Below are positions 1-34,622 of a DNA stretch of 64,000 nucleotides, one piece after another. This stretch comes from Obrimoposthia wandeli. Lineage: Eukaryota. A program made the position numbers and the translations under genes. Every line of letters starts with the position of its first letter. Within the stretch, counting starts at the first letter, position 1. The notes beneath the pieces are model-generated. The model had not been told where the DNA came from and ran no database searches. It saw only the letters and a program-made list of their open reading frames with translations. Location of the stretch: the NCBI GenBank assembly GCA_977020255.1, contig CDROCS010000562.1, positions 310,001 to 374,000 on the forward strand, written 5' to 3'.

Positions 1-235
1 TAAGTTTTTGAGAAATCGGGTAGATTTGTTCCTCGAAGTTAAGAATTTGATAAGTTTTGAAAAATCGAGTAGATTTGTTCCTCGAAGTTAAGAATTTGAT
101 AAGTTTTTGAGAAATCGGGTAGATTTGTTCCTCGAAGTTAAGAGTTTGATAAGTTTTGAGAAATCGGGAAGATTTGTTCCTCGAAGTAAGAATTCGATAA
201 GTTTTGAGAAGTCGAGTGGATTTGTTCCTCGAGTT
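1..235 (+). repeat. Tandem array of ~49-50 bp units (>=4.7 copies, truncated by window edge) in the element's 5' leader
   Basis: Unit taagttt(t)gagaaatcgggtagatttgttcctcgaagttaagaatttga repeats at about 1, 51, 100, 150, 198. Confidence 0.95.
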
Positions 236-237
236 AG

Positions 238-459
238 TAAATTTGATAAAGTGAGAATCGAGTGGATTGATACTCGAAGTAATTAATTGAATAGGTTAAG
301 TCGGGAGACTGTGTCCTCGAACTAATTAAAGAAATAAAAAATCGTAAATAAATTTGATAAAGTGAGAATCGAGTGGATTGATACTCGAAGTAATTAATTG
401 AATAGGTTAAGTCGGGAGACTGTGTCCTCGAACTAATTAAAGAGATAAAAAATCGTAAA
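238..459 (+). repeat. 111-bp tandem duplication in the 5' leader
   Basis: taaatttgataaagtgagaatcgagtgg...aaaaatcgtaaa occurs at 238 and 349, nearly identical. Confidence 0.95.
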
Positions 460-728
460 ATAAGAATTGTGAAATAAGATACAATAATAAGTAAATTGAT
501 ATCGTAAACGAATACATAATTGATAAGACAACGGATAATAGAAAAGGACCCGCGTATAATACTAGAAGACAAAGTCAGATTCCCAAGGAAGAGATAAATA
601 ATAATAAAGTTAACCGAATTGAACAGGTTCCCCAAACAGATAACGAAGTAACAGAAAAGACTAGAGTCGAAGAAAACGTATCAGAAAGAGACGTTGATCA
701 ATCAGCGGTTTCAACCGGCAGTTTTAAT

Positions 729-3269: not shown

Positions 3270-3383
3270 ATAAAAACGCCTATAGAAATTTTAGACAGTT
3301 CAAGCGAAAGCGGAGATAATGATGTAGCTGAAGCTTGGAACAAGACATCCACACCAGAACCGTACGTAGCTGAATTACAAGAC

Positions 3384-6300
3384 ATGAATTTAGAAAATGA
3401 GTTGACAACTCCAGTGGTCGAGGTGCCACCAGAACCAGATATAATTCAAATCAGACAAGATGAAGTCACGGATACAGCTAATCAAGCGAGACAAAACGAA
3501 AACGTAACCCAACTAGTAGGAGAAGACGAAATCTCCGAAATTGTAGATTTAGATTCACCAATTTGGCATGCTGCATACAAAGATAGACAAGCAGAGCAGA
3601 TGATGCGACAAAATGAAGAGATTGGCCATGAAGAAGGACCAAGTCAAGAGATACAGTATAATGATGAACCGTATGATCCAGGAGAGAATCAAACTGAGTA
3701 TCAGTATTTTCGAAGAGGACCTGGAAGACCTAGAAAGGACGGAAGTATATTACGAAATGTTCTAACTGCACCACAAACTGATGAAGAGAGACATCTAAGC
3801 ATTGGACAGTTAGCAGCGTCATTAGAGCAGTATAGTGCAGAGAGGAATGAAGATATCAGAGGTGATATGAATTCAGAAGCTCCAAGTAGTAAAGATATAC
3901 TTACGGGAATTCTCAGGCAAGTGAAGCCGAAGTTGTTCAAAATGTACAGAGATGAAACAACCGATATAACAGACAATTTGACTAAAGCAGTTAGATCACA
4001 GATGTCTGCAGTAAAGAGAATGACCGCGAATCATGTATACCATGCATCGATAGATAGATTTTACGACGGTGAAGTTTTAGCGCGATTATGTGGAAACCAG
4101 ACTACAAATAAAAAGTTAATTACAGCAATCACATATCTATGTTTCCAATTGACGGAACGAACGAGCCAACCTCACGAAGTCAAACAAGGAATAAATGAAG
4201 CAATGTATCTGATCGAGAATGTATTACAGAGACGAATTGACGAAAACGGAGGTTGGGCAAAATTAAGTGACTACGCTAAAACCATTGTGGAAATGAATGA
4301 AGACGATGACGAACAATGTCATGAGAATCGTCAAAGAGAAAATAAACAATACCGTCCGAAAGAGAGAAACAATCAACCAAATATGTCCACAACAATGATG
4401 ATGATGATGTTAGTAATGTTCATGGGAATGCAACAGGCATCAGGACTGATAGCATACGACTGTAGCATACCAAAGATGGGACAAAAGTATTCACTGCTTG
4501 ACAGCGAAGACTGTCCAGAATCACAACCGTCAAAACTAGAAGTTAAAGGTGTTGAAAACTACTTTGTGTATCAGGATGTTGATAAAGTACAAGTAGAAGT
4601 GAAAGAATGTTCAATCCATTCAAGTTATCACGAATTCTATTGTGGCCATAGAAGTTTTATGTCGGAAATCACACCTACCACACCGTACAAAGCACATAAG
4701 GTTTTGCCAAGAGATTGCGAAGACGCATTTCGAACAGGAACAATAGAAGTAGACAAGAATTACAAACCTGATGTAAAAATTGGAGTGAGACGATACGAAA
4801 CAGTCACGAGAGTCGGACAACGATGGGCTGATGGATCTTGTGACGGAGGAACAAAAAACGTGCGTGGAACCAAAGTAACCGAGTTAGTAATGGACGTAAC
4901 TTACAAAATCGAATTAAAAACATGGACCGCCAATTTTGATAAAAAGACACAACTAATGATGAAGTATCCAGAATGTAAAATGACAGATACATCTTGTTTT
5001 ACAGGCGAATCCACAATTGTGTATCACGTGAATCCGAAACAATGCTCTTTAGTATTTTTGAAAGAGATTAGCTTTAACAAAATAAAAGGATTCCTGTATA
5101 ATAAAGATGGAGAAGGATTCCTGTATAATAAAGTTGGAAAAGGATTGCTCAATGAAACAAGACCAATTCCAATGACAAAGACACCTACACTGTTAATGGC
5201 AACATCAATAGAAGAAGGATTGATATTTATTAAAAAGAGAAACAAAGCGCGATGTGGAATGACTGTTAGTACTACAAACTATCCTGGAATAGTTTTGTCC
5301 AAAGAAGCAATAGCATTGGCAGAAACCAAGCTAGAACCTAGAGATATGCAGCTACACACGTATTTTAATAATAAAATTGATTTCTATTATCATAAAGGAT
5401 TGATGCAAATGGAACAGTTATATCGGATGATGATCGAAAGAGATTGCCAGCTAAACAAAGAGATCGTAAGAACAAAGTTAGCATTAGCTATTACGAATCC
5501 AGACATGGTAGCACCATTATTACCCTTGGATGAAGGAGTATTTGCTAAAACCATGGGAGAAGTATTGTATACTTACAAGTGTAATAAAGTAGAGGTACAG
5601 TTGAGAAAAACAGATCGATGTACGAGTGAATTGGCAGTAACGTATAATTTAAAAGATCTTTTTGTTGAACCAATCACGAGAATGATACTTCCAAAAGACA
5701 CTCCAACTAAAGAAATCAGCTGCTCTAATATAATGGCACCTGAATATCAGATGACGAATGATCTATGGATAACGTTACCTGATCGAAAGCCAACGAAAAC
5801 CCCAGCGATGATAAAAATGACGAATCTTAAAGGTAAAATGAAATTCGAAGCGGTGGAAAATATGGAGAACGCAGGATTGTACAATGAAAAAGATTTAAAA
5901 GCGGCGTGGAACGAAATAATGTTTCCAGTAAAAAGAGCCAGAGTACTTACGGAGATGGTACATCGAGCATTACCGCCAGGAGCTAGATATGCGAATTTTG
6001 ATATGTTATTATCGCCAAGTCATTTCAAGGAAGCAGCACATCAGACACTTAGAAAGATGTGGGGGAAATTCCTTGTTTTAGGACAACTATTTTCGGGTAT
6101 CATAGGTATTTATGTTATAATTAAATTTGTGCTGGTAATTATAGCCCAGGTGTTGTCTACGTATAGTTTATACAGGATAACCGGAATCACCTGGCAACTT
6201 ATAATTGGATGTTTTCCATTTTTAGCAAAATATCTAATGCACCATCATCACGAGAACGAGTTGCGAGCCCTCAAGAAGGAGCAACATCAAACGAGAACCA

Positions 6301-6986
6301 TGATACGAGACCCAAGAAATTATCGAGACGACAACGACGACGATAACGATAGTCCAGGAGTATATGCAAAGATACCAGGAAAACCAAAGATTCCGTTACC
6401 AGACAAGGAAGAAGTGGCGTTAAACCTATACCCAATGAAGGAACTAAAGGAAGAGAAGGAAAAGTTCAAGAGAGGCATTTTAATGATAAGATGGCCTAAA
6501 GTGAGCTACAGTGAGATTCCACAAGCAGAGGAAAAAGACAAAAAAGATAATTCCAGAAGAATTCTGAAGTCTAGGATATCAAATGAGAATCCAAATGCTC
6601 CACCCCAAGTAGCAGTAACATTGAACGGAAGAGAATATCTTGCCGAAGTTGATACTGGATCCGCAGTATCAGTACTGAGTAAAGAAATCTTGTCATCAAA
6701 AGAATTAAGAGAAGTATGTCCTAGAAAACAGACATTTGTTAACGTAAATGGTACAGATGTAGTGTCGGAAGGAACACTGAAATGTTCATTGAATATCGAT
6801 GGAAGAGCATTGCAGTTAAGTGCTAGAATATTCACAGATTGCGGTAGTCCAGTCATGATTGGGATGGACGTAATAAGAATGTTTGAAGGAATAATTATAC
6901 TACCAAACAACAAGAGTTATAAGAATGACAGTTCAGTGAGAGAGATAAAAATGTTGAGAGGACCTATAGTCGAAAAGAAAAAATAA
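3384..6986 (+). CDS. env: ORF2: acidic N-terminus + AT-hook + Bcl-2-like domain + internal signal peptide + chuvirus-type (class III-like) envelope glycoprotein + TM + retropepsin 1
   Basis: RRGPGRPRK (3711-3737); IDENGGW BH2-like motif (~4236-4256); signal MSTTMMMMMLVMFMGMQQASG then LIAYDC (4446); Cys-spaced ectodomain motifs DGSCDG, RCGMTVSTTNYP, RDCQL, GEVLYTYKC; TM ~6070-6236; protease VDTGSAVS (DTG 6651-6659). Confidence 0.85.
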   Translation: MNLENELTTPVVEVPPEPDIIQIRQDEVTDTANQARQNENVTQLVGEDEISEIVDLDSPIWHAAYKDRQAEQMMRQNEEIGHEEGPSQEIQYNDEPYDPGENQTEYQYFRRGPGRPRKDGSILRNVLTAPQTDEERHLSIGQLAASLEQYSAERNEDIRGDMNSEAPSSKDILTGILRQVKPKLFKMYRDETTDITDNLTKAVRSQMSAVKRMTANHVYHASIDRFYDGEVLARLCGNQTTNKKLITAITYLCFQLTERTSQPHEVKQGINEAMYLIENVLQRRIDENGGWAKLSDYAKTIVEMNEDDDEQCHENRQRENKQYRPKERNNQPNMSTTMMMMMLVMFMGMQQASGLIAYDCSIPKMGQKYSLLDSEDCPESQPSKLEVKGVENYFVYQDVDKVQVEVKECSIHSSYHEFYCGHRSFMSEITPTTPYKAHKVLPRDCEDAFRTGTIEVDKNYKPDVKIGVRRYETVTRVGQRWADGSCDGGTKNVRGTKVTELVMDVTYKIELKTWTANFDKKTQLMMKYPECKMTDTSCFTGESTIVYHVNPKQCSLVFLKEISFNKIKGFLYNKDGEGFLYNKVGKGLLNETRPIPMTKTPTLLMATSIEEGLIFIKKRNKARCGMTVSTTNYPGIVLSKEAIALAETKLEPRDMQLHTYFNNKIDFYYHKGLMQMEQLYRMMIERDCQLNKEIVRTKLALAITNPDMVAPLLPLDEGVFAKTMGEVLYTYKCNKVEVQLRKTDRCTSELAVTYNLKDLFVEPITRMILPKDTPTKEISCSNIMAPEYQMTNDLWITLPDRKPTKTPAMIKMTNLKGKMKFEAVENMENAGLYNEKDLKAAWNEIMFPVKRARVLTEMVHRALPPGARYANFDMLLSPSHFKEAAHQTLRKMWGKFLVLGQLFSGIIGIYVIIKFVLVIIAQVLSTYSLYRITGITWQLIIGCFPFLAKYLMHHHHENELRALKKEQHQTRTMIRDPRNYRDDNDDDNDSPGVYAKIPGKPKIPLPDKEEVALNLYPMKELKEEKEKFKRGILMIRWPKVSYSEIPQAEEKDKKDNSRRILKSRISNENPNAPPQVAVTLNGREYLAEVDTGSAVSVLSKEILSSKELREVCPRKQTFVNVNGTDVVSEGTLKCSLNIDGRALQLSARIFTDCGSPVMIGMDVIRMFEGIIILPNNKSYKNDSSVREIKMLRGPIVEKKK

Positions 6987-6998
6987 ACTACGTTCCGT

Positions 6999-9900
6999 AT
7001 GGGAAATTCGTACCAAGACAAAAAACAGGAAGCGCTAGTAAAGTCGATACTTCACTACAAAAACGTAAACCTCGGACCACAAGAGATGACGAGGAGGAAA
7101 ATAACATATGTGAATCTGTCAGAAAAGGATCCCATGAGATTCGAGAAAAAGAGACGAAATATATTAGAACTGTACTATTCAAAAGAAATGGCACGTAAAA
7201 TGGCAAGATCAGGTTTAGAAATGTTAAACGCGACAAGCAGTTATGGTCATGAGATAGTAGTACGATGCGTATTGTGTAGAGTAAAGTTTAGAGAGTGGGA
7301 AAAGAATGAAAACCCAATGAGACGTCATAAAAGAGATGCACCAAATTGTCCATTTCTTTTGAAACTGAAAACGTCAAACGTACCAGAAATCCAAAAAGGA
7401 AAAGCACCCGATTTCGATTACAGTGACGAGATTCCAAAAGGAGAATCAGCTCTAATAGTAGGCAGAGTAGTAACAAATAGCCGAATTGAAGACATATTCG
7501 AAGTTATGCGAGAAGTGAACGAATGTGACGAACAGTATCGAGAAATAACTTTCGAAGATCCAAGACTTAAAAAATTGGCAAAAAAGGGACTTTTTGCTAT
7601 AAAAAAGGATGGTAAAGACGTAATTAAATGCCACAAGTGTAAAAAAGAACGAATTATCGACAGATATACTCTTGAGCTGCCTAAGAAAATTTTACATCAT
7701 GAATTTTGCGAGTTTTGTATGTTAAAAAACAAAATAAAGCAAAAAGAACAGAAAACCGAATGTATAATCGAATACCAAATCACACGGAAAGAGATCTTGG
7801 CTCAACAGGACACACCGGTAGTGTCATTCGTGAGAAGGTTATATCCAAAAGAAGCAGAAAGAATCAGAGAATTGGTAGAATTAAAAATAAAAACTACGCG
7901 AAACGGATACGGATCGATTTTTGAATTACTGCGAGATAAAGATGACAGTACAATTGAAACAAAAGAGAAAGAGTACATAAATGAACTAGAATACGTACTA
8001 GAAGATCCGGAATGCGCAGTTTGCATGGTCAACAAAATAGAAGTTGCCTTTCTACCATGCGGACATGTAAGAACATGTCGGAGATGTGCGAACGAAATGG
8101 TATCATGTCCAATTTGTCGAAGAATAATAGATCGACAAGTGAGAAACATTAGATTTCACTATCCAAACAAAGGAAGTGGACCGACAGAGTGTAATAATTC
8201 GATAAATACAATATACCATATGGGAAATATAAATGGAGCACAGCGACCAGCAGCTATCATTAGAGTAAATAATTTAAGAGTAAAAGCCTTAATTGATACA
8301 GGTGCTGTAGCTTCGATAGTAAGTGAAGACTGTTTGACAGAAGAACAGAAACGAACAATGGCAGAACCAGATGAATTCTTGGTATCGGTCAATGGAGACC
8401 CTGTTAAAGTGACGGGAATATTACCATGTACATTTATAATTGGACGTAATACGATCACTATACCCGTTAGAATCATGAAAGAATGTCCTGAACCTACAAT
8501 TTTAGGAATGAATGTACTATCTCAACTTAAAGGAATAAGTATTGATTTACAAGATCCAAGATTGAAGGATAGCACATCAAACAGACAAATAAACCAAATT
8601 GATGTAATTATAGAGAATCCTATAAAAATCGGAAAAAGATCACAATTTCTCATTCAAGGTCACACCTTATCAGAAGATAAAGGACCAGTTGTGTTCGAAC
8701 CATCACGAGATTTCATAGAGAAATACGAATTACCAGTTGTAAGTACAGTATGTCTGATTGAAAATCACAAAATACCAGTTAGACTGATGAATACAACCAA
8801 CAATGACATCCTATTATACAGAGGGATGAGGTTTGGAAAGATAGCACAGATGGAGAATCCCACCATGTGTGCTATGAAACTCGATAAAGATACGAATGAT
8901 TACGAAGAAATAGTAATCCAATCAGAAAGACTGACAACTAGAGAAAAGAAACAATTACTTGATCTAATACATAAATTTCCGAAAGTAATTGCAAAAAATC
9001 CATATGACATAGGAGAAACACCTGTCATAAAACATACAATACCACTGACAGAAGACAAAGTAGTCAGAAGAAGACCATATCGAGTACCATTACAGTTACA
9101 AGATGAAGTAAAAAGTCAGATCGAAGATATGTCTAAAACAGGAGTAATTAGACCGAGTTTTTCGCCATTCTCAGCACCTGTGGTGTTGGTAAAAAAGAAG
9201 GATGGGAAAATGAGATTCTGTATAGATTTCAGAGAACTGAACAAGATCACAAGAAAAGATGTGTATCCATTACCTAGAATCGAAGAGATGCTCGATACAT
9301 TGGGTAATTCAGATTTTTTTACAACATTAGATTTGCAGAGTGGATACTGGCAAATCGAGATAGAGGAAGAGGATAAACACAAAACAGCCTTTTCCTGCGG
9401 AGATGGATTATACGAATGCGAAAAGATGCCATTCGGACTGACAGGAGCTCCAGCAACATTTCAGCGTTGCATGAATTTTGTACTCGCATCGTGTGCAAAC
9501 ACGATGGTTTATATCGATGACATAATAATATTTTCGAAAACGTTCGAAGAACATTTAAAAAATCTTGAAGTTGTATTTAAAAGACTGGAAAACGCTAAAT
9601 TAAAAGTTAAACCTACAAAATGCGAATGGGCTAAAGAGCGAGTAACATTTTTAGGACATATAGTATCGAAAGAAGGCATTCGACCTAATCCAGCAAAGAT
9701 CGAGAAAGTAAAAGCGCACTTAGCGCCAAAGACTGTTAAGGAAATACAGAGTTTTTCAGGTCTTGCGAACTATTATAGACGATTTGTTGAACATTTGTCA
9801 GATATAGCAACACCATTGAGAAAGTTGACGAGGAAAGATAAGAAGTTCATATGGGGAGAAGAAGCACAACAAGCGTTCGAGCATTTAAAAGAAAGACTGA

Positions 9901-11666
9901 TAAAAGCACCAATATTAGGGTTTCCAGATATAAATCGAAAATTCATACTAATGACAGATGCAAGTAACTATGCTGTAGGAGCAGTATTGGGACAAGAGGA
10001 TGACGAAGGAAGAGAACACGTCATCGCGTATGCGAGTAGAGGATTAAACAGAGCCGAAAGAGGATACTCTGTTATCGAAAAGGAATGTCTAGCCATAGTG
10101 TATTCATGTAGACAGTACAGACACTATTTGCTAGGACAAAAAGTATTCCTGTATACAGATCACAAACCACTACAGTTCTTATATAAACATAGAGATGAGA
10201 TGAGTAGATTAAACAGATGGTTTCTAAAATTGGCCGAATTCGATCTAGAAATCCGTTATAGAACCGGAAAGTCGAACGGCAACGCAGATTGTTTGTCGAG
10301 ATTGACAAATGTAGACGAGAAAGGAAACATAATTCCAGAAGAAGATGAAACCAATGACCAAAAAGGAGAAGCAAATCTACTGACGATTTTGCTAAAGACG
10401 GGTAAAATAGACAAAGAGATCATCAAAGAACAGAAAGAAGATGAAGAACTGAGTCTAATCAAAGAATTGTTGGTGAATGGAGACCTAAACGATGAAATGA
10501 CGAAAAAATACTCGATAAAAGAAGGAATCTTGTATATTGTCAATAATGTCGGAAAGATAGTAGTAGTAATTCCGAAGTCATTGAAAACAGCAGTGATGAT
10601 CCAGTATCACGATGGAACACTAGGAGGACATCTGTCAGGGCGAAAGACAATAGCCAGAATCAAAGAGAAGTACCATTGGGATGGTATGGAAGACGACATA
10701 AAACAATGGTGTAAACAATGTAAAGTATGTTTAACCAGAAAAGACACCGGAACTCGTACTAAAGTTCCACTGAAACCAATGCCAGTTCCCTTGGCACCAA
10801 TGGAATTCACAGCGATGGATATATTGGGATCATTGAGAGAATCAAGTAAAGGAAACAAGTACGTCATAGTATTTACGGACTACATGACGAGATGGGTAGA
10901 AGCATATCCCATGCAAAACCAGAAAGCTGAAACAATAGCGCAAATCTTAGTGGAAGAGATAATATTTCGATACGGAGTGCCTAGAAAGTTGTTAACGGAT
11001 CAAGGTAAGAACTTCACTGGAGAAGTCATAAAAGCAGTATCGAAGATATTCGGAATCATGAAGTTACAAACTTCACCATATCACCCACAAACAGATGGTC
11101 TAGTAGAAAGGTTTAATAAAACTTTATGTATGATGGTACAATCCTATTGCTCAGACAAGCAAGAGGATTGGGATAAATATTTACCTTCATGTTTATATGC
11201 TTACAGGAATTCAGTTCGAGAGGCGACGGGTCACACACCATTCTATCTGATGTATCTCAGACAGAACAATATGCCGATGGATCTGGAGTGGACCCAGCCA
11301 ACATCTCAGTATCTAGAAACTGAACAATACATTGTCGTCATGAAGGAAAGATTACAAGATGCTTGGACCAAAGCCGGATTGAAGTTGAAATTCAATCAAG
11401 AAGGTTACAAGGAACAATACGACAAAAAAGCAAAACCACATGAATTTAGAGTCGGAGATCAAGTGATGATATTTTATCCAGTCATCGAACCAGGTCTATC
11501 GTTTAAACTGCATAGACCATACAAAGGACCATACAAGGTGATCCAAACAACCTCAACAAATTTGAAAGTAATCAACGAAGAGAATCGGAACAAGGAACCG
11601 ATGATTGTACATGCAAATCGATGTAAATTAGTACCAAATAAAGATAACACGTCACGATATGAGTAA
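6999..11666 (+). CDS. pol: ORF3: IAP module (BIR, degenerate BIR, RING) fused to Pol (retropepsin 2, dUTPase-like spacer, RT, RNase H, integrase)
   Basis: BIR C-x2-C-x16-H-x6-C at 7266-7349; RING CAVC..PCGH..C..C..CPICR at 8013-8132; LIDTGA (8295); RT LDLQSGYWQ, MPFGL, YIDD (9510-9521); RNase H TDAS..GAVL, TDHKPL; integrase H..GH..C..C, MDILG, TDQG, ERFNKTL, GPY. Confidence 0.95.
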   Translation: MGNSYQDKKQEALVKSILHYKNVNLGPQEMTRRKITYVNLSEKDPMRFEKKRRNILELYYSKEMARKMARSGLEMLNATSSYGHEIVVRCVLCRVKFREWEKNENPMRRHKRDAPNCPFLLKLKTSNVPEIQKGKAPDFDYSDEIPKGESALIVGRVVTNSRIEDIFEVMREVNECDEQYREITFEDPRLKKLAKKGLFAIKKDGKDVIKCHKCKKERIIDRYTLELPKKILHHEFCEFCMLKNKIKQKEQKTECIIEYQITRKEILAQQDTPVVSFVRRLYPKEAERIRELVELKIKTTRNGYGSIFELLRDKDDSTIETKEKEYINELEYVLEDPECAVCMVNKIEVAFLPCGHVRTCRRCANEMVSCPICRRIIDRQVRNIRFHYPNKGSGPTECNNSINTIYHMGNINGAQRPAAIIRVNNLRVKALIDTGAVASIVSEDCLTEEQKRTMAEPDEFLVSVNGDPVKVTGILPCTFIIGRNTITIPVRIMKECPEPTILGMNVLSQLKGISIDLQDPRLKDSTSNRQINQIDVIIENPIKIGKRSQFLIQGHTLSEDKGPVVFEPSRDFIEKYELPVVSTVCLIENHKIPVRLMNTTNNDILLYRGMRFGKIAQMENPTMCAMKLDKDTNDYEEIVIQSERLTTREKKQLLDLIHKFPKVIAKNPYDIGETPVIKHTIPLTEDKVVRRRPYRVPLQLQDEVKSQIEDMSKTGVIRPSFSPFSAPVVLVKKKDGKMRFCIDFRELNKITRKDVYPLPRIEEMLDTLGNSDFFTTLDLQSGYWQIEIEEEDKHKTAFSCGDGLYECEKMPFGLTGAPATFQRCMNFVLASCANTMVYIDDIIIFSKTFEEHLKNLEVVFKRLENAKLKVKPTKCEWAKERVTFLGHIVSKEGIRPNPAKIEKVKAHLAPKTVKEIQSFSGLANYYRRFVEHLSDIATPLRKLTRKDKKFIWGEEAQQAFEHLKERLIKAPILGFPDINRKFILMTDASNYAVGAVLGQEDDEGREHVIAYASRGLNRAERGYSVIEKECLAIVYSCRQYRHYLLGQKVFLYTDHKPLQFLYKHRDEMSRLNRWFLKLAEFDLEIRYRTGKSNGNADCLSRLTNVDEKGNIIPEEDETNDQKGEANLLTILLKTGKIDKEIIKEQKEDEELSLIKELLVNGDLNDEMTKKYSIKEGILYIVNNVGKIVVVIPKSLKTAVMIQYHDGTLGGHLSGRKTIARIKEKYHWDGMEDDIKQWCKQCKVCLTRKDTGTRTKVPLKPMPVPLAPMEFTAMDILGSLRESSKGNKYVIVFTDYMTRWVEAYPMQNQKAETIAQILVEEIIFRYGVPRKLLTDQGKNFTGEVIKAVSKIFGIMKLQTSPYHPQTDGLVERFNKTLCMMVQSYCSDKQEDWDKYLPSCLYAYRNSVREATGHTPFYLMYLRQNNMPMDLEWTQPTSQYLETEQYIVVMKERLQDAWTKAGLKLKFNQEGYKEQYDKKAKPHEFRVGDQVMIFYPVIEPGLSFKLHRPYKGPYKVIQTTSTNLKVINEENRNKEPMIVHANRCKLVPNKDNTSRYE

Positions 11667-11714
11667 AGATCACAGAAATCGAAGCCGAATACCAATACCA
11701 TTAAACTTACACGA

Positions 11715-14700
11715 ATGGTAAGTGATCGGAACTACATAAACATGATGACGAGTGGTAGCGAGGAAAAACCAGCGAGAATTGGTATGCTCAGAATGAAGCA
11801 CCAAGAGGAAAAGGAAGTAATCCGACACATCGCACCACAAGAGATATTAGAAGAAGATGAAGAGATAATAGTTGTTTTCGAAAAAACACAACCAACAGAT
11901 GTGGCTAAAGAAGTCATTGTGAAAGATGCACTGACAAACGAATTTCTGTGCGAACTTAGAGTGTCATACTACGACGGAAATACATTAGTCGCAGCACTAT
12001 ATCAAAACTCCAATGTGTTTACGACTGAGAAAGTGATAATCGAAATCACATTGACACCAAACATAGTTGCATGGCAGAACTATGACAGTACTGAAGCAGG
12101 ACTAGCCAGTCAGGAAGAGAAGGAACCGGCCGGTGGTCACATACTGCATGGTACACCAAAAAGACTCAAACAAGAATACCACGATGTAATAATGGTATTA
12201 CGTAATTCACATGGGAAAAGAGATATCATGAGAGTTCATTTAATCGACGCAGACACCGAAAAGATAATTTGTCAGATGGACACCAAATATTTTGACGGAA
12301 AGACAATTGTATGTTGTATACCAGAATCTCACCGGTTAGACACAGATCAAACGGAAGTATCTGTAAGGTTGAGTGTAATAGAAGGATTTCATTCGCCAAA
12401 CCAACCGGAAGTGGCTAACAATAAAATCATCAAAGCAACGGCAGAGTTACGCATTGACAGTGGATACCGGAAGTGGGAAGCTAAAAATAAAAAACCACAA
12501 AGAATCAATATGATCCGAGAACAAGTGACCAACTCAATCCAGCCAAAATATCATGCTGAAATAGTATCATCCGCGCCAAGTGTGATTACATCGATAAACG
12601 ACGAAATTATAATTTTACTAAAAAATCGATGGCCGTCATCAACCGAGATACGAGTAAATTTAATTAATTATGCGAAAACACCGATATCTAAGCTGAATGT
12701 TATCTATTTTGATGGATTGTCCATCATGGGTAAATTGGAAACAATTGTCATGTGCTATGGAGCACAGTTCCAAGTTGAGATACTTAAAGATAGCGTAATA
12801 CCGTATCCGATTCACAAATACGAAGGGGAAATCAATCCAATTATTCTAACCCCTTCATTAATTTCAGTTCAGACAGACATACCAGAATACCCTTCGAGCG
12901 AGTCTAGTCAAGACAGCGAACCAGAAAGTAACGATACAGAATCAACAGAATCCGAAGATAACATGATAGAGCGATTCGGAAAAACCATGGAGGTTGAATT
13001 CGCTAAAGAGAGCAGAAAAAGACAAAACATAGAATTCGTGAAACAGAATATACAAGAAAGACGAATTAAATCTGCAGAAGAGACCGAGTCGGAAGAAGAC
13101 TCAACAAAGGAACAGACATCAGAGACAAAGATGAATATCTCTCCAGCAATACGAATGCTGAGAGGGAAGAAACTGGCAAAACTATCCAACATCGACGAAC
13201 AGATAGAGAAGAGATTAGAAAGACTAAAACTTGAAGAGTCAGAATTATTGCCACCAATGAGCGAGATCATTCCAGATAAGTTATACCTCGGAAATGTGGA
13301 AGATGCAACAGATGAAAAGAAACTGTTGGAACAAGGGATAACATACGTGATCAACGTTACAATGAATCACAAATCGCAATATCAGACAATCAGAGCTATG
13401 ACATTAGGATTAAAAGACTCAATGGACGCTAATCTTCTCGAATGGTTCGTAGAAACAAACGAAATACTTCACAGAGAACTCCGAAACCAAGGAAAAGTGT
13501 TGGTACATTGTCAGAAAGGAATTTCTCGATCAGCAACTCTAGTATTAGCATATCTAATAAAGACTAGACGAATGCAGGTACTAGAAGCGCTAAAATACCT
13601 ACAGGAGAGAAGAAGTATTGCAAACCCAAATCTTAATTTTTTGGGACATTTGGCAAATTACCAACTTCTGTTGCAAGAACAAAGACGGATGGACGACATT
13701 CCTGAGGATCCAAAGGAAAAGAATTTCCTCCAAGCATTATCGTTGACCGGGTTATTCTTAGCCGGAGTCGACAAAATTACACAGATAATGCCAAAAGTAT
13801 TTTTATGTCATCCGGGAGATATAGATACTGCTGGATTAAAGTTCCACAGTATCAACCGAGTAATCAACATTGTTGAAGTCGGAAACGAGATAATTAGTCT
13901 GTGTCAAAATACTGAAGACGACACCACTCGATACATACATGCTTCTAATCGAGAGATAAACGATGCACAACAACATCTGACGAAATTGACTCAAACCATC
14001 CAAGCCGAAGTCACAGAAGGAAACGGCGTTCTGATATATCAGAAAAAAGGTACGATGTTAGCGCCTACCATAGGTGTATCCTTGTTGGTAGAGTACCATG
14101 GTCACACGCCAGAAGAAGCGATGGTCTACATCAAACAGAATAGACCAGATACGGAATTCAAACCGTTACTCGTTCGAGAAATAGAGAAGTACGCCGAAAA
14201 GAGGAAACAGCAACGAGAAACAAATGAAGCTACAACAACAGTGCCCAGCTTTCAATACCAAAGATTGCTAGCGATAGGCTTGTTAAGTTGTCTAATGCCG
14301 ATAACGGGAGCACAAGAGATAGGCTCCAACCACGGAAATAGTTCCTGGTTCAACGAAATCCACAACTACACCATACAGTACCATACGCAGGCACTGATGA
14401 TGCTATTAGTGTTGTTAGGATTAATTGATGTATGGATCATCCGAAAATGTCTCCAATCTATGAGAACCGACAGTAAAAGATTTCAGTTTGTAAAGATGAA
14501 AAGACCAAATGGACCAACGAACAAAGTGCTTGTGTATCTAGACGAAAGGATCGAGGACAACATAGTAAATGAAGCGATATTTTACCCACAAAACAGAATA
14601 CTGAATCAATTCCGAATAGATTACGAAGCTGACCGACAGCGCACACTTGACCGAATATCAACAACATTCGCCGGATGCAAGCGAAGAAAACGAATTGTAA

Positions 14701-16928
14701 AGGAAATACAAAAAGATGCTGATACAAAAGGACCGACGTATATATTCGACGGCGATGTCATCAAAACACGTGAGTATGGAAGTAAGAGAGTGATAATAGA
14801 AACGATGGAAGGACATAAAACATGCTTGTCCGCTAAAAATGGATTCGGAAAGTTGATGATACAAGGTAAACAGGTACAGTTGATTATCGGAAGAAATGGA
14901 ATCGAGGAGATGTCAAAACAACGACAGACAACAAAACGATCCAATCAGAAACAGATATCTCTCAAACGATTGATAATTAAAACCCTTTGCAAAAGGTCAG
15001 TCAAGGCCCTGTGCACCGTTGCACAAGGATTGATCTACGGAGTAGTAATTGGATTAGTACTACAAGCCATGCCAACCAGTAAAGCTGAAATGATGACATT
15101 ATACGAGTATAATCTACATTTGAGAAATCTAGACAACACCCTCGAAATAATCAAGACGTCCCACAGTAAAGCCGTAAGGATCATGTGTGTAAAAGGATGT
15201 CCAGGACGAATGTGTATAGTTCCAGCGACCGAAATGAAAACACTTAATGGACATTATGGAGTTAGTATTGTCACATGTGAAGACTACACATTTGGACAAA
15301 CTAAAATAGTACTTCTCAGTGACATGTCCAACCAAAGTGCACACAAATTTAAAATATTAACCATCAAGAGTAAAGGAATACCAGCAGTACGTTATGGTAT
15401 TCTAGAATTGGTTAATCCAATACTCGCACTGATCATTGGATTCATAATATTAATATTACTCATCTTGTTTTGTTGTACAAAGATAGAGTTGAGATCAAAA
15501 AAGAAACGTCATGATCTCGCAAGACGAACAGGTCAAATGAATTTACAAAAATTCAACACAAGTATACCAAGACCACCATTTCTAGATGAACCAGCACCGG
15601 AGTACCAGCCAACGATATATGAACATATCGAGGAAAGACCGTACTATATGAGTAATCTGAGTTGTTTCATTGAAATTCCTGAGTTTAGGAATCGAACGAT
15701 CATAGGAATCATGCTGATCATACAAATTACCACTACCAAGGCTAGTTATGAAATCATGATCAGTAAATGGAGACAAGATGTAATACGGGCGTTATACATA
15801 GAAATCCCTCTATTAAAAACAAATCACGTAGTAGACATTCATCTACAGACGTCAGCAACCGACAATATCGATCAGAAATTGTATGTCATCCGACAGGTCA
15901 GAATAAAGATCGACAAAAGTACACCCGATTACAACTTAATATTATTCTATCATGAAAGAGTGTTATACCTACGGATAACGATATCAAAAAGGAAGCGGAT
16001 TATCCAAAGTATCCGAACAAAGTCATTAATATTGCCTAGAGATGAGCGCATCTGGAAAATTGTCGACAGGATTATGATCACAGGTAGACGACGTAAAGCC
16101 GTATGGAATTCCGTTAGAATATTTTTCAGATTACTAGAAACTGACAAAGTAACAGTATCGTGTCCCAATCCAGATGGCGGAATCAGATTCGAAATCCAAA
16201 ACCAAATGTTAGTACCACATTTTGATACAGAATGTCTGTGTAATCGAATTCCCAGTAACACTACAGAGACCTCAACCATAATCATGGTAATAACAGGTGA
16301 AATATTCTACATAACTCTAAGATACCAGAACCGTCGATTTCGTAGATCCGGTATAAGTATCAAACCCAGGAAAATCATTCCCAAAAAACCAATCCTAGTC
16401 AAAAAGAAGGCAAAGATAAACGAAAGTAAACCCCATTCCAAAAAGCCGAACGTGATCAGAACAAAGACAGAAGCGAAAGAAAAAGAGCTAAATTCCAGAA
16501 ACCAAAGTACAGTTATTAAGAGGACAAGAGTGAGGGGAACGATCCCACTAGATCCCAAACATCATTTCCAATCCAAAATAATAATACCTGTTCTACCAGA
16601 AACAAAACACCCAAATCCACGAATTTTTAGAAAATCGGACATAATACATGGAAACCGATCAAAACCCATGGAAATGTCATTCGAACCGACAAACAACAAA
16701 ATGAAGTATGATTATCAATCATCAGATAGCGGAGTAACAGCGGTCAATGCTCTAATTGGAATGGCCGTAGTGTCAACAGCAGTGGTTCTATTGACAATCG
16801 TGTGCGTGAAAGGCAGTCAAGTATGCCCAAGAATACGACGAAAATGCGAAGGATTGCGATGCTGTGACAAACCCACCATGGAGGAAGTGGAATTGCGACC
16901 CTTACCTCCGCCTCCCATCAAGATATGA
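11715..16928 (+). CDS. ORF4: accessory polyprotein with 3x IPT/TIG-like repeats, dual-specificity phosphatase, inactive phosphatase copy, and several signal-peptide/TM modules
   Basis: Three ~80-aa repeats with a Y(Y/F)DG core; DUSP IIPDKLYLGN...VLVHCQKGISRSAT (HC at 13506); second DUSP-like domain with VLIYQKKGTMLAP; six hydrophobic segments; ends TGA TAA. Confidence 0.85.
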   Translation: MVSDRNYINMMTSGSEEKPARIGMLRMKHQEEKEVIRHIAPQEILEEDEEIIVVFEKTQPTDVAKEVIVKDALTNEFLCELRVSYYDGNTLVAALYQNSNVFTTEKVIIEITLTPNIVAWQNYDSTEAGLASQEEKEPAGGHILHGTPKRLKQEYHDVIMVLRNSHGKRDIMRVHLIDADTEKIICQMDTKYFDGKTIVCCIPESHRLDTDQTEVSVRLSVIEGFHSPNQPEVANNKIIKATAELRIDSGYRKWEAKNKKPQRINMIREQVTNSIQPKYHAEIVSSAPSVITSINDEIIILLKNRWPSSTEIRVNLINYAKTPISKLNVIYFDGLSIMGKLETIVMCYGAQFQVEILKDSVIPYPIHKYEGEINPIILTPSLISVQTDIPEYPSSESSQDSEPESNDTESTESEDNMIERFGKTMEVEFAKESRKRQNIEFVKQNIQERRIKSAEETESEEDSTKEQTSETKMNISPAIRMLRGKKLAKLSNIDEQIEKRLERLKLEESELLPPMSEIIPDKLYLGNVEDATDEKKLLEQGITYVINVTMNHKSQYQTIRAMTLGLKDSMDANLLEWFVETNEILHRELRNQGKVLVHCQKGISRSATLVLAYLIKTRRMQVLEALKYLQERRSIANPNLNFLGHLANYQLLLQEQRRMDDIPEDPKEKNFLQALSLTGLFLAGVDKITQIMPKVFLCHPGDIDTAGLKFHSINRVINIVEVGNEIISLCQNTEDDTTRYIHASNREINDAQQHLTKLTQTIQAEVTEGNGVLIYQKKGTMLAPTIGVSLLVEYHGHTPEEAMVYIKQNRPDTEFKPLLVREIEKYAEKRKQQRETNEATTTVPSFQYQRLLAIGLLSCLMPITGAQEIGSNHGNSSWFNEIHNYTIQYHTQALMMLLVLLGLIDVWIIRKCLQSMRTDSKRFQFVKMKRPNGPTNKVLVYLDERIEDNIVNEAIFYPQNRILNQFRIDYEADRQRTLDRISTTFAGCKRRKRIVKEIQKDADTKGPTYIFDGDVIKTREYGSKRVIIETMEGHKTCLSAKNGFGKLMIQGKQVQLIIGRNGIEEMSKQRQTTKRSNQKQISLKRLIIKTLCKRSVKALCTVAQGLIYGVVIGLVLQAMPTSKAEMMTLYEYNLHLRNLDNTLEIIKTSHSKAVRIMCVKGCPGRMCIVPATEMKTLNGHYGVSIVTCEDYTFGQTKIVLLSDMSNQSAHKFKILTIKSKGIPAVRYGILELVNPILALIIGFIILILLILFCCTKIELRSKKKRHDLARRTGQMNLQKFNTSIPRPPFLDEPAPEYQPTIYEHIEERPYYMSNLSCFIEIPEFRNRTIIGIMLIIQITTTKASYEIMISKWRQDVIRALYIEIPLLKTNHVVDIHLQTSATDNIDQKLYVIRQVRIKIDKSTPDYNLILFYHERVLYLRITISKRKRIIQSIRTKSLILPRDERIWKIVDRIMITGRRRKAVWNSVRIFFRLLETDKVTVSCPNPDGGIRFEIQNQMLVPHFDTECLCNRIPSNTTETSTIIMVITGEIFYITLRYQNRRFRRSGISIKPRKIIPKKPILVKKKAKINESKPHSKKPNVIRTKTEAKEKELNSRNQSTVIKRTRVRGTIPLDPKHHFQSKIIIPVLPETKHPNPRIFRKSDIIHGNRSKPMEMSFEPTNNKMKYDYQSSDSGVTAVNALIGMAVVSTAVVLLTIVCVKGSQVCPRIRRKCEGLRCCDKPTMEEVELRPLPPPPIKI

Positions 16929-17050
16929 TAAGTCAGAGGAGGTTGTAGATAATTAATGTATGAAATATGTAGAAATACCTAGAAGCAATTGTACAAATAG
17001 TAGAAATATATAAAACTCATGTAGAAATTAATCATCATCATGTATTTAGA

Positions 17051-17350
17051 ATGTCCGAAGAATGCCCAATATGTTTGGAAGATCTAACCGAACGAAGAAC
17101 AAGACCCGAAACCTGCAACCATTTACACCACGAGGAATGTTTATCGACATGGATCAGAACTTATGGACAGTTCGGACATCCAACATACCCTTGTTGCCCT
17201 GTATGCAGAAGACAATTCGCAAGATTCATCATGTTAGAACCCAACCAAGAGGATGTATATGTACAGGTGGTATTCTGTTGGAAGAATTTCGGAGAGTGTT
17301 GGTGTTACTACTGTTTGTCAGAACGACAAAATCCGACCACTTTTGTGTAA
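17051..17350 (+). CDS. Small RING-H2 protein 1 (putative E3 ligase) with C-terminal Cys motif
   Basis: CPIC...CNHLHHEEC...CPVC gives C3H2C3; tail CWKNFGECWCYYC. Confidence 0.85.
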   Translation: MSEECPICLEDLTERRTRPETCNHLHHEECLSTWIRTYGQFGHPTYPCCPVCRRQFARFIMLEPNQEDVYVQVVFCWKNFGECWCYYCLSERQNPTTFV

Positions 17351-17410
17351 ACATCACACAATCACCAGTCCTCAATCGAGCCCAAATTCAACATCAACCC
17401 TCTCACAGTA

Positions 17411-17716
17411 ATGTCTGGAGAATGTTCCATCTGCTACGAGAGCATCGTGGACTTCTACACCAAGCCCAACAACTGCGACCACCTCTTCCACATCGAATGC
17501 CTCGAGACGTGGATTCCCATCGCCAACAGCAACAATCCCCTCGACTTCCCAACCTGCCCGATGTGCAGAGCGACCTTCTCAGTGCACTACGTGTACAACC
17601 AGGACAGCCTCCAAGCAGTGGTACCCATAGTACACTGCTGGAAAACTATCTGCGATTGCTGGTGCTCGTTCTGCGTGGAGGAGCGACGCACAGGCCAGCC
17701 CAATTCCCAGCAATAA
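17411..17716 (+). CDS. Small RING-H2 protein 2 (paralog of RING 1)
   Basis: CSIC...CDHLFHIEC...CPMC; tail CWKTICDCWCSFC; collinear with RING 1. Confidence 0.85.
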   Translation: MSGECSICYESIVDFYTKPNNCDHLFHIECLETWIPIANSNNPLDFPTCPMCRATFSVHYVYNQDSLQAVVPIVHCWKTICDCWCSFCVEERRTGQPNSQQ

Positions 17717-18067
17717 TCGAAGGTAACTTTCTGACTTTGAACGTGACATCATGAACTACCCTGTGTATTGCATACCGCGATAAATTAGCTACCATAATTG
17801 TAATCATAATTGTATAATCTTGTGAAACTGTAAAATGACCATTACCATTTTTATGTATGTTGTTTAACTGAAATTGTAATTATTATACTGAAATTCTAAA
17901 AGACAATTTTTATGCCTAGTGTGAATGTGTAAACATGCCTAAAATCAGAACAAAACTCGGTAGGATTAAAAAACTAAAGGTTCATTTTGAAACTAAAATT
18001 TTAACCTTATAAATTAACGACGAAAACAGTTGAACCCCAAGTTGAAAGGAATCATTTTCTTGTGCAG

Positions 18068-18598
18068 ATGAAGTGTTCAGTATGCAGGGAGAAAATTTGG
18101 ACGGGATCGGCATCCCCTGTCGGCTGCCGTCACAAATTCCACGAGTCGTGCCTCTATTTGTGGGCCAAGGCTCGACCCCCAGGCCAAATCACATGCCCAT
18201 TGTGCCGGGCACCCTTTTGCAAGTGGACGCTCCAGTGCCGTGGACGATCCAAGGGCACCCGATCACCTGCCAGTTGCATTGGTGGCATACACTGCCAGTG
18301 CTACGTGTGTCTCGCACGCCGTCGCGACACACAATTGGGCATCCGCGAGCGATGGCGGTCTAGCCGCGACTGCCATTCATGGTTCCAGGCCAGACGCTTA
18401 TGGATGGAGAACCATGCGCTGAACGGGCAATATTTTGACCTATTTGTCGAGAGCCCGCACCTGACCCGGAGCCAGCAACTACACCTCTACAACGGGGACA
18501 GTCCGTCCTTTCCAGACCTACCCCTGGAGCAGGTCATGCGTTACCTAACTAGTCGGAACCAGCCGACAATTACAATCGATCTTACTAACGACAATTGA
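18068..18598 (+). CDS. RING-H2 protein 3 (diverged paralog with longer C-terminus)
   Basis: ATG at 18068; CSVC...CRHKFHESC...CPLC; tail CIGGIHCQCYVC. Confidence 0.8.
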   Translation: MKCSVCREKIWTGSASPVGCRHKFHESCLYLWAKARPPGQITCPLCRAPFCKWTLQCRGRSKGTRSPASCIGGIHCQCYVCLARRRDTQLGIRERWRSSRDCHSWFQARRLWMENHALNGQYFDLFVESPHLTRSQQLHLYNGDSPSFPDLPLEQVMRYLTSRNQPTITIDLTNDN

Positions 18599-19324
18599 TA
18601 ACATTACATTCTTTCCTCCCTTCTTTCCTTCCTAATTCCTTACTTATCTATGTAGCCATTTTGTGTATAAGTAATAAATTAGTGAATATTTGAGACTCTG
18701 TCCAAATGTTCACTTTTTTAGAAAAAACCGAGTTTCTTTTAAAAGTTTTGGGCATGTTTGATGAATTGAATGACTGATTTTGTAGGGATGGACCTAAAAT
18801 CAACAGCCAGAGGCTTATAAGAGTAAAATCGATACGTTCCGGGGACGTAACTTTTTTGGAACCCCCGAGATATGTTAGATTTAGGAATTGAGAAATTATT
18901 AAAAAAATTAAATAATTTATACTAAAATAAAATCCTTGAAAGCAAGGTTGAAAATTAAATATTTAAAATTAAGTTAAAATATTAGAGGATAAAATCAGGG
19001 GTAAATATTAATAGGACCACGAAGGTCGTGTGTAGTGTGTCGTATATATAGGTTAAGATTATTAATACAAAAGTGCAAAATAAGAATAAGACTTAATTAG
19101 GGGAAACTAAGAAGAAAAATCAAGAAAGAAATTAATCAAGGAAAGAAGAAATTATCGTTTAATTTTCCACCTGCCAAATTGTTTCGGCGCAGCACTCGTT
19201 ATATCGACTATTGTGTTTTCAGCTGTCTAGGATCGACAGTAGCGCTCGAGCCTAAGAGGAAAAAAGTAATTAGATTAAATCTATAAATTTTACTTAATTG
19301 CTTAGCAGCTGATTTTATATCGAC

Positions 19325-19404
19325 TATATAAGTCGCCCCAATCAATTGTCAGAAAAAGAAAGGATTCTAGCCGAGACACACACAGCGGAAAAGAGCTGGT
19401 AAGC
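19325..19404 (+). promoter_or_regulatory. TATA-like box and downstream 5' splice donor in the putative LTR
   Basis: TATATAA at 19325-19331; CTG|GTAAGC with GT at 19399-19400. Confidence 0.45.
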
Positions 19405-19487
19405 GTGTCTAATTTGAGTTAGATTAATTCCGGCATTTTTATAGAAATCTGAAATTTACCAATCCTGAAATATTTACCCATCCTGCC

Positions 19488-19883
19488 ATCAATTTGAATC
19501 CAGTATTATCAATTTGAATCCAGTATTATCAATTTGAATCCAGTATTATCAATTTGAATCCAGTATTATCAATTTGAATCCAGTATTATCAATTTGAATC
19601 CAGTATTATCAATTTGAATCCAGTATTATCAATTTGAATCCAGTATTATCAATTTGAATCCAGTATTATCAATTTGAATCCAGTATTATCAATTTGAATC
19701 CAGTATTATCAATTTGAATCCAGTATTATCAATTTGAATCCAGTATTATCAATTTGAATCCAGTATTATCAATTTGATCCAGTATTCTCAATTTGAATCC
19801 AGTATTATCAATTTGAATCCAGTATACTCAACTGCATCCAGTATACTCAACTGCATCCAGTACGCTCAGCTGAATCCAGTTTG
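19488..19883 (+). repeat. 20-bp tandem array (~20 units) inside the LTR
   Basis: atcaatttgaatccagtatt x14 perfect (19488-19767), then progressively diverged units. Confidence 0.98.
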
Positions 19884-19957
19884 CTCTACCGATCCCGCGC
19901 CAGCCGATCTCGAGACTAGAAAACGTAAGAGAGATTAGTAGGGCCAAGAGTTGAGGG

Positions 19958-20483
19958 TTACCCATTTTCTGATTTACATTAATTTTGGAAAAATTGAAAG
20001 TTACCCATTTTTGATTTACATTAATTTTGGAAGAATTGAAAGTTACCCATTTTTTGATTTACATTAATTTTGGATAAAATTGAATTACCCATTTTCCGAG
20101 TTACATTAATTCCGGATAACATTGAATTAACCATTTTCTGATTTACATTAATTTTGGATAAAATTGAATTACCCATTTTCCGAGTTACATTAATTCCGGA
20201 TAACATTGAATTAACCATTTTCTGATTTACATTAATTTTGGATAAAATTGAATTACCCATTTTCCGAGTTACATTAATTTCGGATAACATTGAATTAACC
20301 ATTTTCTGATTTACATTAATTTTGGATAACATTGAATTACCCATTTTCTGAGTTACATTAATTTCGGATAACATTGAATTAACCATTTTCTGATTTACAT
20401 TAATTTTGGATAACATTGAATTACCCATTTTCTGATTTACATTAATTTTGGATAAAATTGAATTGCCCATTTTTTGATTTACA
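19958..20483 (+). repeat. 42-bp tandem array (~12.5 units) with partial 84-bp higher-order structure
   Basis: Variants ttaaccattttctgatttacattaattttggataaaattgaa and ttacccattttccgagttacattaattccggataacattgaa alternate. Confidence 0.97.
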
Positions 20484-20745
20484 ATAATTATTGATATAAA
20501 GATAAAAGTTTACCCTCCAAGTAGTAAAGTTGACATTAAAGTTAAATTGATTGAAAAAGCTATAACTTGAGCTTATTCGCGAGTTAGAGGAACGACTCTA
20601 AAAAACTCGACTAACTTTACATAAAATCGATACGTGGTTCATCCCCACTTTTTGTAGAGACTTACAGAAGTCTTAGGAATTTTTACTATACTTTTTAGAA
20701 AATACGTACATAAACGTATTGTTGTGTTCAGTTTAGTGTGCTACC

Positions 20746-20751
20746 AATAAA
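20746..20751 (+). terminator. Polyadenylation signal in the putative LTR
   Basis: AATAAA ~150 bp before the inferred LTR end. Confidence 0.4.
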
Positions 20752-20904
20752 CGATTTCCTACATTAGAACACGTTGTTTTTAAACCCTTCAGATTAAGAG
20801 ACGTCAAACCAAACACCTTCAGATAAGAAAAAGAGATAACACTAAACCATAACACTAAGTAGGCCACGACCAACTTTAAGACCTGCTTCTATTCGAACTC
20901 ACGT

Positions 20905-20916
20905 TGGGGCTCTCCG
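20905..20916 (+). promoter_or_regulatory. Degenerate primer-binding site (tRNA-Pro-like)
   Basis: TGGGGCTCTCCG resembles TGGGGGCTCGTCCG, the complement of the tRNA-Pro 3' end; it directly follows the inferred LTR end. Confidence 0.5.
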
Positions 20917-21049
20917 CACATAAGAGGATCTATACAAGTCTCGTATAGAAACCCCAACAAAATAATTAAGAGAGAATAAGATATATAAAAACAGAATTGA
21001 ATTAAGAATACGATAAGTAATAAGTGAATTAATACGGGAATAAGTAAAT

Positions 21050-21454
21050 TGATATAAAGAGTTCGTAAAATAATAAATTGAGTAATCAAAATATAAAATA
21101 TTAAAAAGTAATAAGTAAATTGAAGTTGTTGAGATATAAGTGAATACATAATTGACAAGATAGTGGATAATCATTGAGAACCCGCATTTAATACTAGAAG
21201 ACAGAGTCGAGATGATCAGATTCCTCGAGTAAATAAAGATGTTACATAAGTATTTCAAGTCGAAGATGTTGAAGAAACAGTATCTGAAAGATACATTAAT
21301 TATTTGACGAAGTAAATCAAGTAGATATCCAGGAAAGATTGAAGAAGCTAATTTGAACGATATTGAAGACATAATTGAGGAAAATGTGGCTAACGCAGCT
21401 ATGAATGTGGAATAGTTAGTGCAAGCATTGAATGTGATGTTGAGATCCAATTTT
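21050..21454 (+). pseudogene. Decayed copy of the leader and gag 5' end from a related element
   Basis: Homologous to ~455-955: PAFNTRRQS vs PAYNTRRQS; MNVE*LVQALNVMLRSNF vs MNAEQLAQAINATLRPNF; contains stops and indels. Confidence 0.85.
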
Positions 21455-33600: not shown

Positions 33601-34319
33601 TAACGTACAATTTTAAAAACATATACAATTACAAATTCAAATAATAATTTTCGTAGTATATACAATTTTAAAAATTGACTATTTATATTTATAAACACAT
33701 GGCTAAATTAAAAATAATTAAGAATAAAATATTTGAAAGAAATTTGAACATGATATATATTTTTTAAATAGTTTTCAAAGTTATTTTGTAAATAAATAAC
33801 TTTTAACTTAATGTAGTTAGGCCAATAAAGATTTTAAAAGTTCTTATACGTTAAAATTTCTAATCAAAATCGTTCTTTTGTTAGTCAATATGTTGATGTT
33901 TAGAACAACATTTGGTGCATTTAAATTACTGGCAATTGTAAATGGATAATCCCCTATTTCCAATTTGTAGTGCGATTACTGGGAAAGATTACGAACCACT
34001 GTGGAAGATTTACGTTTATAGAGGGTATACAGATTATGCAGATATTCTGTACTGTTCGCAGTAGTAAATGATTTATTGGTCACCCAGAGTGTTTGTGAGG
34101 TGCGGATTCACGCCCAAATTGGTGCTAGAGGCGGTGATAATTATTGTAAACAGGCAATAGACCGGAAATAATAATCATCGATCATCACTGAAATTGAGTA
34201 TTAGTCAGCCAGTGTTTCGATTATTTACGTTTTTATTAATATATAAAGAAAGTGAAAATCTGAGAATCCTGCATACATGGAAAGTCACAATGATCAAACA
34301 CGATCCGACTAAAAGACTA

Positions 34320-34483: not shown

Positions 34484-34622
34484 TACCAGGAGACCAAAAC
34501 AATAATAGATGTCAGGATATTTTGTAGTATTTGAAGATAACGAACAAATAGTTGGTTTAGTGTCTAAATAATTTTAAAGATGAGAATGTTCTTTGCACAG
34601 CTATAGTAACGACATACACCTC

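Follow-up and report, generated by a model that had tools for sequence, protein, structure and literature searches.

A predicted LTR leader exon and alternative splice acceptors for three RING genes of a Burro-like Ty3/gypsy element

How could a retrotransposon express genes that lie far behind its polyprotein frame? The question is raised by three small RING genes in the window, i.e. the whole 64,000-nt stretch of DNA analysed here, which opens inside the element that carries them. The RING genes are under purifying selection, with a synonymous excess among their copies, and, considering that they also lie 16 kb behind the Gag ATG, they need mRNAs of their own. The original prediction was that the 5′ LTR supplies a short non-coding leader exon, which is spliced to an alternative acceptor in front of each gene. 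We favor this explanation in a modified form, with a probability of roughly 0.6: a leader from the R region would be cis-spliced across 19–20 kb to alternative acceptors before the RING ATGs. The feature is real and well supported at the level of sequence, whereas the splice itself is a prediction.

The element and its RING genes

The element with the three RING genes is a young, giant, envelope-bearing Ty3/gypsy LTR element of Burro-like type with a length of ~23.6 kb (Table 1). Its LTR, putative in the original prediction, turned out to be real: it is paired with a 5′ twin, with 4 mismatches over 1,995 aligned positions, has TG...CA ends and is accompanied by an AAAT target duplication. The primer site behind the 5′ LTR, TGGTGCCCCGAG..., is presumably that of elongator tRNA-Met. 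The primer-site pattern has 5,598 matches genome-wide, and the family's gag was found 3′ of 39 of the 40 matches sampled; a tRNA scan of the window returned 0 hits. The insertion site of the element is the 5′ UTR of a relative that is older and decayed (window 20960–21450; L011 4650–5376) and of which an LTR end and primer site lie upstream of the insertion and a gag start downstream; the search for an older nested relative yielded 18 stretches and no usable accessory cassette. Elsewhere, the window contains an intronless 548-aa secretin/Methuselah-like GPCR gene (23355–25001), a short dispersed repeat pair (34314–34487 and 42391–42579), a 300-nt exact duplication (34623–35350) and a 99/111-nt tandem array (37357–38039).

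Table 1. Features of the element, in window positions unless noted; a slash marks the predicted splice site
Feature	Position	Strand	Remarks
5′ LTR twin	contig 307377–309414 (G000:C562; L011 5377–7414)		just outside the window, upstream; presumed acting LTR
Polyprotein region	846..16928	+	four ORFs in one frame, short stop-bearing gaps between
Predicted acceptor 1 (tattTAG/aATG)	AG 17048..17049	+	1 nt before ATG 17051
RING gene 1	17051..17350	+	99 aa; Pfam zf-RING_2, E 2.9e-9
Predicted acceptor 2 (ctctcaCAG/taATG)	AG 17407..17408	+	2 nt before ATG 17411
RING gene 2	17411..17716	+	101 aa; Pfam zf-RING_2, E 1e-8
Predicted acceptor 3 (ttttcttgtgCAG/ATG)	AG 18066..18067	+	directly abuts ATG 18068
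RING gene 3	18068..18598	+	176 aa; Pfam zf-RING_2, E 2e-7
Internal AATAAA, possible alternative 3′ end	18673..18678	+	3′ of RING3; in 30/61 copies
3′ LTR	18873..20959	+	2,087 nt, sense strand ATG-free
First TATA	19043..19050	+	LTR +170; in 83/83 LTRs; inferred start near 19072
Second TATA (TATATAA)	19325..19331	+	in 75/83 LTRs; possible second promoter
Predicted 5′ splice donor CTG/GTAAGC	19396..19404 (GT 19399–400)	+	in R; counterpart in the 5′ LTR at contig 307891
LTR poly(A) signal	20746..20751	+	~210 nt before LTR end, 3′ of donor; in 6/6 LTRs examined

The first of the four polyprotein ORFs encodes Gag with a CCHC knuckle, and the second a fusion glycoprotein (PF24664, E 2e-95) and a protease, in frame between Gag and Pol. 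The third contains BIR (Pfam E 4.7e-9) and RING (E 1.6e-11) domains followed by protease, RT, RNase H and integrase, in the order PR-RT-RH-IN, and the fourth a DSP phosphatase with a TM region. The Pfam search of the element gave no match to BCL2, MATH, ankyrin or dUTPase. Relatives encode gag-env-pol as one protein of 2,774–4,057 aa; the window copy has intervening stops. No named Burro sequence was present among the 120 of 149 matches listed for the element.

All three ORFs that had been called RING genes match Pfam zf-RING_2, and they are paralogues with a common C-terminal cysteine motif; judging from this family, their products are predicted E3 ubiquitin ligases. Shared variants among copies amount to 12 synonymous and 12 non-synonymous changes in RING1 (58 and 239 sites, respectively), 17 and 6 in RING2 (59 and 244 sites), and 38 and 15 in the first 100 codons of RING3 (71 and 229 sites); RING2 is found in at least 150 copies at 98–100% identity. 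Homologue searches returned none for RING1 and none for the BIR–RING region, and the comparison of RING1 with representatives gave generic RINGs only. A 230-codon frame (17062–17754) overlaps RING1, the spacer and RING2 and is open over at least 222 codons in 50 of 60 copies; it has no Pfam match and may be a by-product of near-identical copies. Just 3′ of the RING2 stop, a donor-like AAG/GTAACT (window 17720–17728) is retained in 59 of 61 copies.

Predicted splice signals before the accessory genes and in the LTR

Upon re-reading the sequence, we found the AG–ATG contexts, the TATATAA at 19325 and the CTG/GTAAGC at 19399 where the original prediction had placed them. The occurrence of a predicted acceptor before each RING ATG exceeds chance: a YAG within 0–2 nt precedes 3 of 3 RING ATGs compared with 10.9% of the 432 ATGs at window 847–18600, giving a chance of ~0.0013 under a rule that was set after the initial observation and for three genes that are paralogues. 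Acceptor 1 is also within the 20 of 622 YAG sites that combine at least 10/15 pyrimidines with no upstream AG. Among copies, the YAG is retained in 64/66, 66/69 and 64/66 for acceptors 1, 2 and 3, respectively, and the AG in 64/66, 68/69 and 64/66, the 69 copies of acceptor 2 including 9 loci chosen for altered upstream sequence. Such retention says little because the copies are near-identical, the exception being RING3, where the acceptor is kept although the 22 nt upstream exist in 21 versions. No clear branch points were found near the acceptors, and at RING2 there was none by the pattern used. Splicing would have to pass over 17 acceptor-like sites of equal score inside the predicted intron, 6 of them in the LTR/UTR and 11 in the polyprotein.

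The comparison was extended to relatives, which provide the stronger test of the acceptors. Of 73 metagenome loci, we looked at 12 that extend past the integrase, and 11 of these carried downstream ORFs, from which short or nested frames were excluded by eye; viral contigs contributed 2 distant loci, which were left out of the analysis. In the 11 relatives (50–58% best-segment identity), 9 of the 20 accessory ORFs have a start codon that follows the end of a YAG at a distance of 0–3 nt. Pooled with the window, this applies to 12 of 23 accessory ORFs against 286 of 2,501 other ATGs (11.4%; Fisher p 2e-6), and a YAG together with a pyrimidine tract, at a 10/15 cut-off picked after the data were seen, precedes 11 of 23 accessory ORFs against 73 of 2,501 other ATGs. 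Relatives L141/L142 and L144/L167 are homologous pairs. The 20 ORFs comprise 4 exonuclease matches, 2 RING matches and 14 without a Pfam match, and because these are other proteins, the acceptor belongs to the position and not to the gene. The adjacent YAG is absent from 11 of the 20, several of which have a YAG 4–15 nt away. The exonuclease genes, found in the distant relatives L141–L145, are of the DEDD type (RNase_T matches); exonuclease cargo also occurs in rotifer LTR elements, as stated in the available text of PMC5408684.

The predicted donor of the window matches 5 of 7 scored positions of the host U1, whose 5′ end is canonical (ATACTTACCTG). In a diverged, ~80% identical LTR type, it differs at three positions yet remains consensus, becoming CAG/GTGAGT (7/7). 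The internal region is ~95–99% identical among copies, whereas the LTRs are extremely variable mosaics, with conservation apparent only in the first ~190 nt and the last ~260 nt. This hypervariability makes a population test of the donor possible. With 7 of 59 loci dropped for lack of a detectable LTR start, the remaining 52 LTRs, ~1.5–3 kb in length, represent 41 types at positions +200..700. In this interval, a U1 match of at least 6/7 is present in 13 of 41 types, compared with 2.1 in shuffled and 2 in antisense sequence, and a match of at least 5/7 in 28 of 41, compared with 14.2 and 12; in the control zone at +1150..1650, donors are depleted (1/38 vs 11.9). We then considered 5′ LTRs chosen by the primer site alone, of which 31 remained after 7 of 40 loci without an LTR start and two more (L256 and L279, interrupted or misplaced) had been set aside. 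A match of at least 5/7 was found in 25 of the 31 (shuffled, 11.5; antisense, 10) and a G/GTRAG core, defined after the data were seen, at +200..700 in 26 (shuffled, 3.9; antisense, 3), while the last 500 nt of the LTR had a donor in 0 of 31; in this sample, 6/7 was reached in only 3 of 33 LTRs. A donor of at least 5/7 up to +1300 is absent in 11 of 83 LTRs, some of them on copies with intact RING genes. The donors stand in approximately six unrelated contexts, as judged by eye, and the counts overstate independence because the LTR types are mosaics with common donor modules and some of the relatives are homologous pairs. Overall, the comparative data support a predicted donor under selection near the 5′ end of the LTR. 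In many LTR types, a second donor-like cluster lies at ~+680..1300 (TAG/GTGAGA, CTG/GTAAGA), nearer to the poly(A) signal; it is absent in the type of the window.

The role originally given to the TATA at 19325 has to be revised. The universal TATA at 19043 is the better promoter candidate; the one at 19325 is unlikely to be the sole or principal promoter, with a second start after it being possible. Taken together, the 83 LTRs contain 111 ATGs ahead of +200 and 11 in +200..1500, and in LTRs with both TATAs the first strong donor precedes the second TATA +25 in 37 of 65. The halt of ATGs at ~+200, the universal first TATA and this donor order together suggest a start near LTR +200. Splicing onto each accessory ATG has comparative support, and the predicted leader is probably ~325 nt long, counted from a start near 19072, instead of the ~45 nt first envisaged. 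It had also been pointed out that no ATG lies between TATA and donor, which is correct and not specific: the whole 2,087-nt LTR of the window has 0 sense ATGs against ~37 expected, and we rejected the ATG-free gap as specific evidence.

ATGs are nearly absent over the 2.5–4 kb from LTR +200 to the Gag ATG, with 3 against 252 expected at +200..700 and 9 against 857 expected from +700 to the LTR end. In most sampled copies, the Gag ATG is the first ATG 3′ of the primer site; the window copy has an earlier one near 766. A complete LTR was available from one distant relative (L148), which has the same primer site as the window element. This LTR contains a single strong donor at +524, with the last ATG at +485 and none thereafter, and three ATGs between TATA and donor.

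Predicted transcripts and competing explanations

If the leader is spliced as we propose, transcription would start near LTR +200, with the second TATA perhaps giving another start. Without splicing, the RNA would serve as genome and polyprotein mRNA, scanned through an ATG-free leader of ~2.5–4 kb up to the Gag ATG. In a fraction of the RNA, the R-region donor would be joined to one of the three alternative acceptors, with implied introns of 19,159, 19,518 and 20,177 nt for RING1, RING2 and RING3, respectively, and each RING protein would be made from a subgenomic mRNA in which the ATG-free leader exon is joined 0–2 nt before the start codon. The primer-binding site is situated 3′ of the donor; splicing would therefore remove it, and the element would be unable to copy the spliced RNAs. 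A further role of this donor may be to help keep the poly(A) signal of the 5′ LTR from being used.

Searching for genomic copies of the spliced forms gave 0 matches to the leader–ATG pattern and 8, 1 and 0 matches to the acceptor-side patterns; inspection of the 9 showed no upstream LTR sequence in any of them, the matches being small indels, local replacement (L285, L288) and a microhomology deletion (L286). This is the expected outcome, since spliced RNAs would be without the primer site, and such an absence proves nothing. Four sequencing runs from one sample cover the element evenly, in a DNA-like manner, and none of the joints listed connects a RING acceptor with the LTR donor, which is neutral evidence. 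So far, a junction has been seen in neither RNA nor DNA, and the donor-less LTRs and intervening acceptor-like sites count against the splice model.

The same acceptors could receive a host spliced leader in trans, which would resolve a polycistronic RNA and leave the LTR donor to another job. In the host COX1 (multi-copy, on large contigs), AAA stands opposite conserved Asn at 4 of 8 and ATA opposite conserved Ile at 5 of 10 positions, with Met at none. We take this usage (AAA=Asn, ATA=Ile) to be the flatworm/echinoderm-type code, and the host is probably a flatworm, for which reason trans-splicing is a candidate. The assembly also includes non-host DNA, as seen from its numerous COX1 genes of bacterial type and from a further mitochondrial COX1, of animal type but with another code (L220). 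According to the available text of PMC12582326, flatworms trans-splice and acceptors are common to cis- and trans-splicing, and that of PMC3315495 describes spliced Cer1 mRNA with and without SL1; trans-splicing would also account for the 11 of 83 LTRs without a donor. However, the leaders reported for parasitic flatworms, as far as PMC12582326 describes them in that text, end in AUG, and such an AUG, joined directly to the acceptor, would match the reading frame of RING3 alone: at RING1 the frame would differ, and at RING2 the start would be followed at once by a stop. Nor is there an AATAAA or ATTAAA in the spacers before RING1 or RING2; an ATTAAA lies 103 nt before RING3, and in relatives the distances of poly(A) signals are scattered. 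We regard trans-splicing as an unlikely source of the RING mRNAs, with a mixed form, cis and trans at the same AG, being possible.

Still less probable, in our estimation, is a promoter of its own for each RING gene, with the AGs unused. In 59 of 59 copies, a TATATAAA is located 42–44 nt 5′ of the RING1 start codon, in 52 of 62 a TATAAA stands 60 nt 5′ of RING3, and an internal promoter drives env in Tor3b/4b elements (available text of PMC4402516). Yet the 60-nt spacer between RING1 and RING2 has no TATA, TATA retention means little because the copies are ~99% alike, and local promoters would leave the AG–ATG adjacency in relatives unexplained. We give similarly little credence to the idea that the LTR donor only binds U1 to counteract polyadenylation in the 5′ LTR, while the partners of the acceptors are donors inside the polyprotein or the cassette. 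Donor enrichment by itself fits poly(A) control equally well, and foamy virus, as described in the available text of PMC3694450, provides a precedent with a donor 5′ of the poly(A) signal in R. Internal partners are on hand as well: 17 internal sites match U1 at 5/7 or better, one of them 6/7 (14770) and one directly 3′ of the RING2 stop (17723). An internal donor, however, would keep the Gag ATG upstream of the RING ATG, and the window donor lies ~1,350 nt from the AATAAA, compared with 193 nt for the whole foamy R region.

Relation to known elements and implications

The element resembles the planarian Burro/GYPSM1 elements as described in the available text of PMC6431247, i.e. in thousands of copies, long LTRs with tandem repeats and accessory ORFs, an env-like fusion protein between gag and pol in the same frame, a BIR domain, and cargo related to SUMO/ubiquitin and apoptosis. 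Unlike Burro (>30 kb), the window element measures 23.6 kb and has three downstream RING genes, the likeness being set by the Burro description in that text, which is silent on the expression of accessory ORFs. The term 'splic' has no match in the available text of PMC8532177, and transcript models may exist in the original Burro papers or their supplements.

With foamy virus, the element shares a donor inside R, upstream of poly(A) signal as well as primer site and present in both LTRs. Foamy virus belongs to the Retroviridae, while the window element is of the Metaviridae type with an inferred R of ~1.7 kb instead of 193 nt, and foamy accessory genes are driven by an internal env promoter, unlike the LTR leader proposed here (available text of PMC3694450). 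Spliced env/ORF3 RNAs are standard in Metaviridae, going by the available parts of reports on Drosophila iERVs (PMC12992720), rotifer ORF3s (PMC5408684) and Cer1 cerv (PMC10309623). As in Tor3a (PMC4402516) and Cer1 (PMC3315495), whose accounts were likewise available in part, a downstream ORF would be expressed from a spliced, LTR-started subgenomic RNA, which for the window element is predicted. Known Metaviridae, within the available text of these five sources, have one spliced product per element, with donors mostly just before or within gag that often supply coding sequence or the AU of the start. The window element differs in having two to three accessory genes, each with its own predicted acceptor and ATG, and env inside the polyprotein. 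At the level of sequence only, a donor near the RNA 5′ end and an acceptor before each downstream gene recall complex retroviruses. In the mostly freely readable literature, we found no Ty3/gypsy or Burro element with multi-acceptor accessory genes fed by an R-region leader.

A broader and more tentative possibility, which we consider doubtful, is a clade-wide plug-in system. One R-region leader would serve every captured ORF whose ATG adjoins an acceptor, and unrelated cargo (RING, exonuclease, orphans) would be added in series. Leader and promoter would be swapped among dozens of mosaic LTR types before a near-constant cassette, and donor-less types would rely on siblings or on the host spliced leader.

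If the proposed cis-splicing is correct, the element would be an invertebrate retrotransposon with a transcription map in the style of complex retroviruses, in which several accessory mRNAs come off one leader. This would explain how Burro-like elements express genes behind a 16-kb polyprotein frame, as well as how they gain cargo. In a trans-splicing host, the element would show, as a natural experiment, how cis- and trans-splicing compete for a single acceptor.
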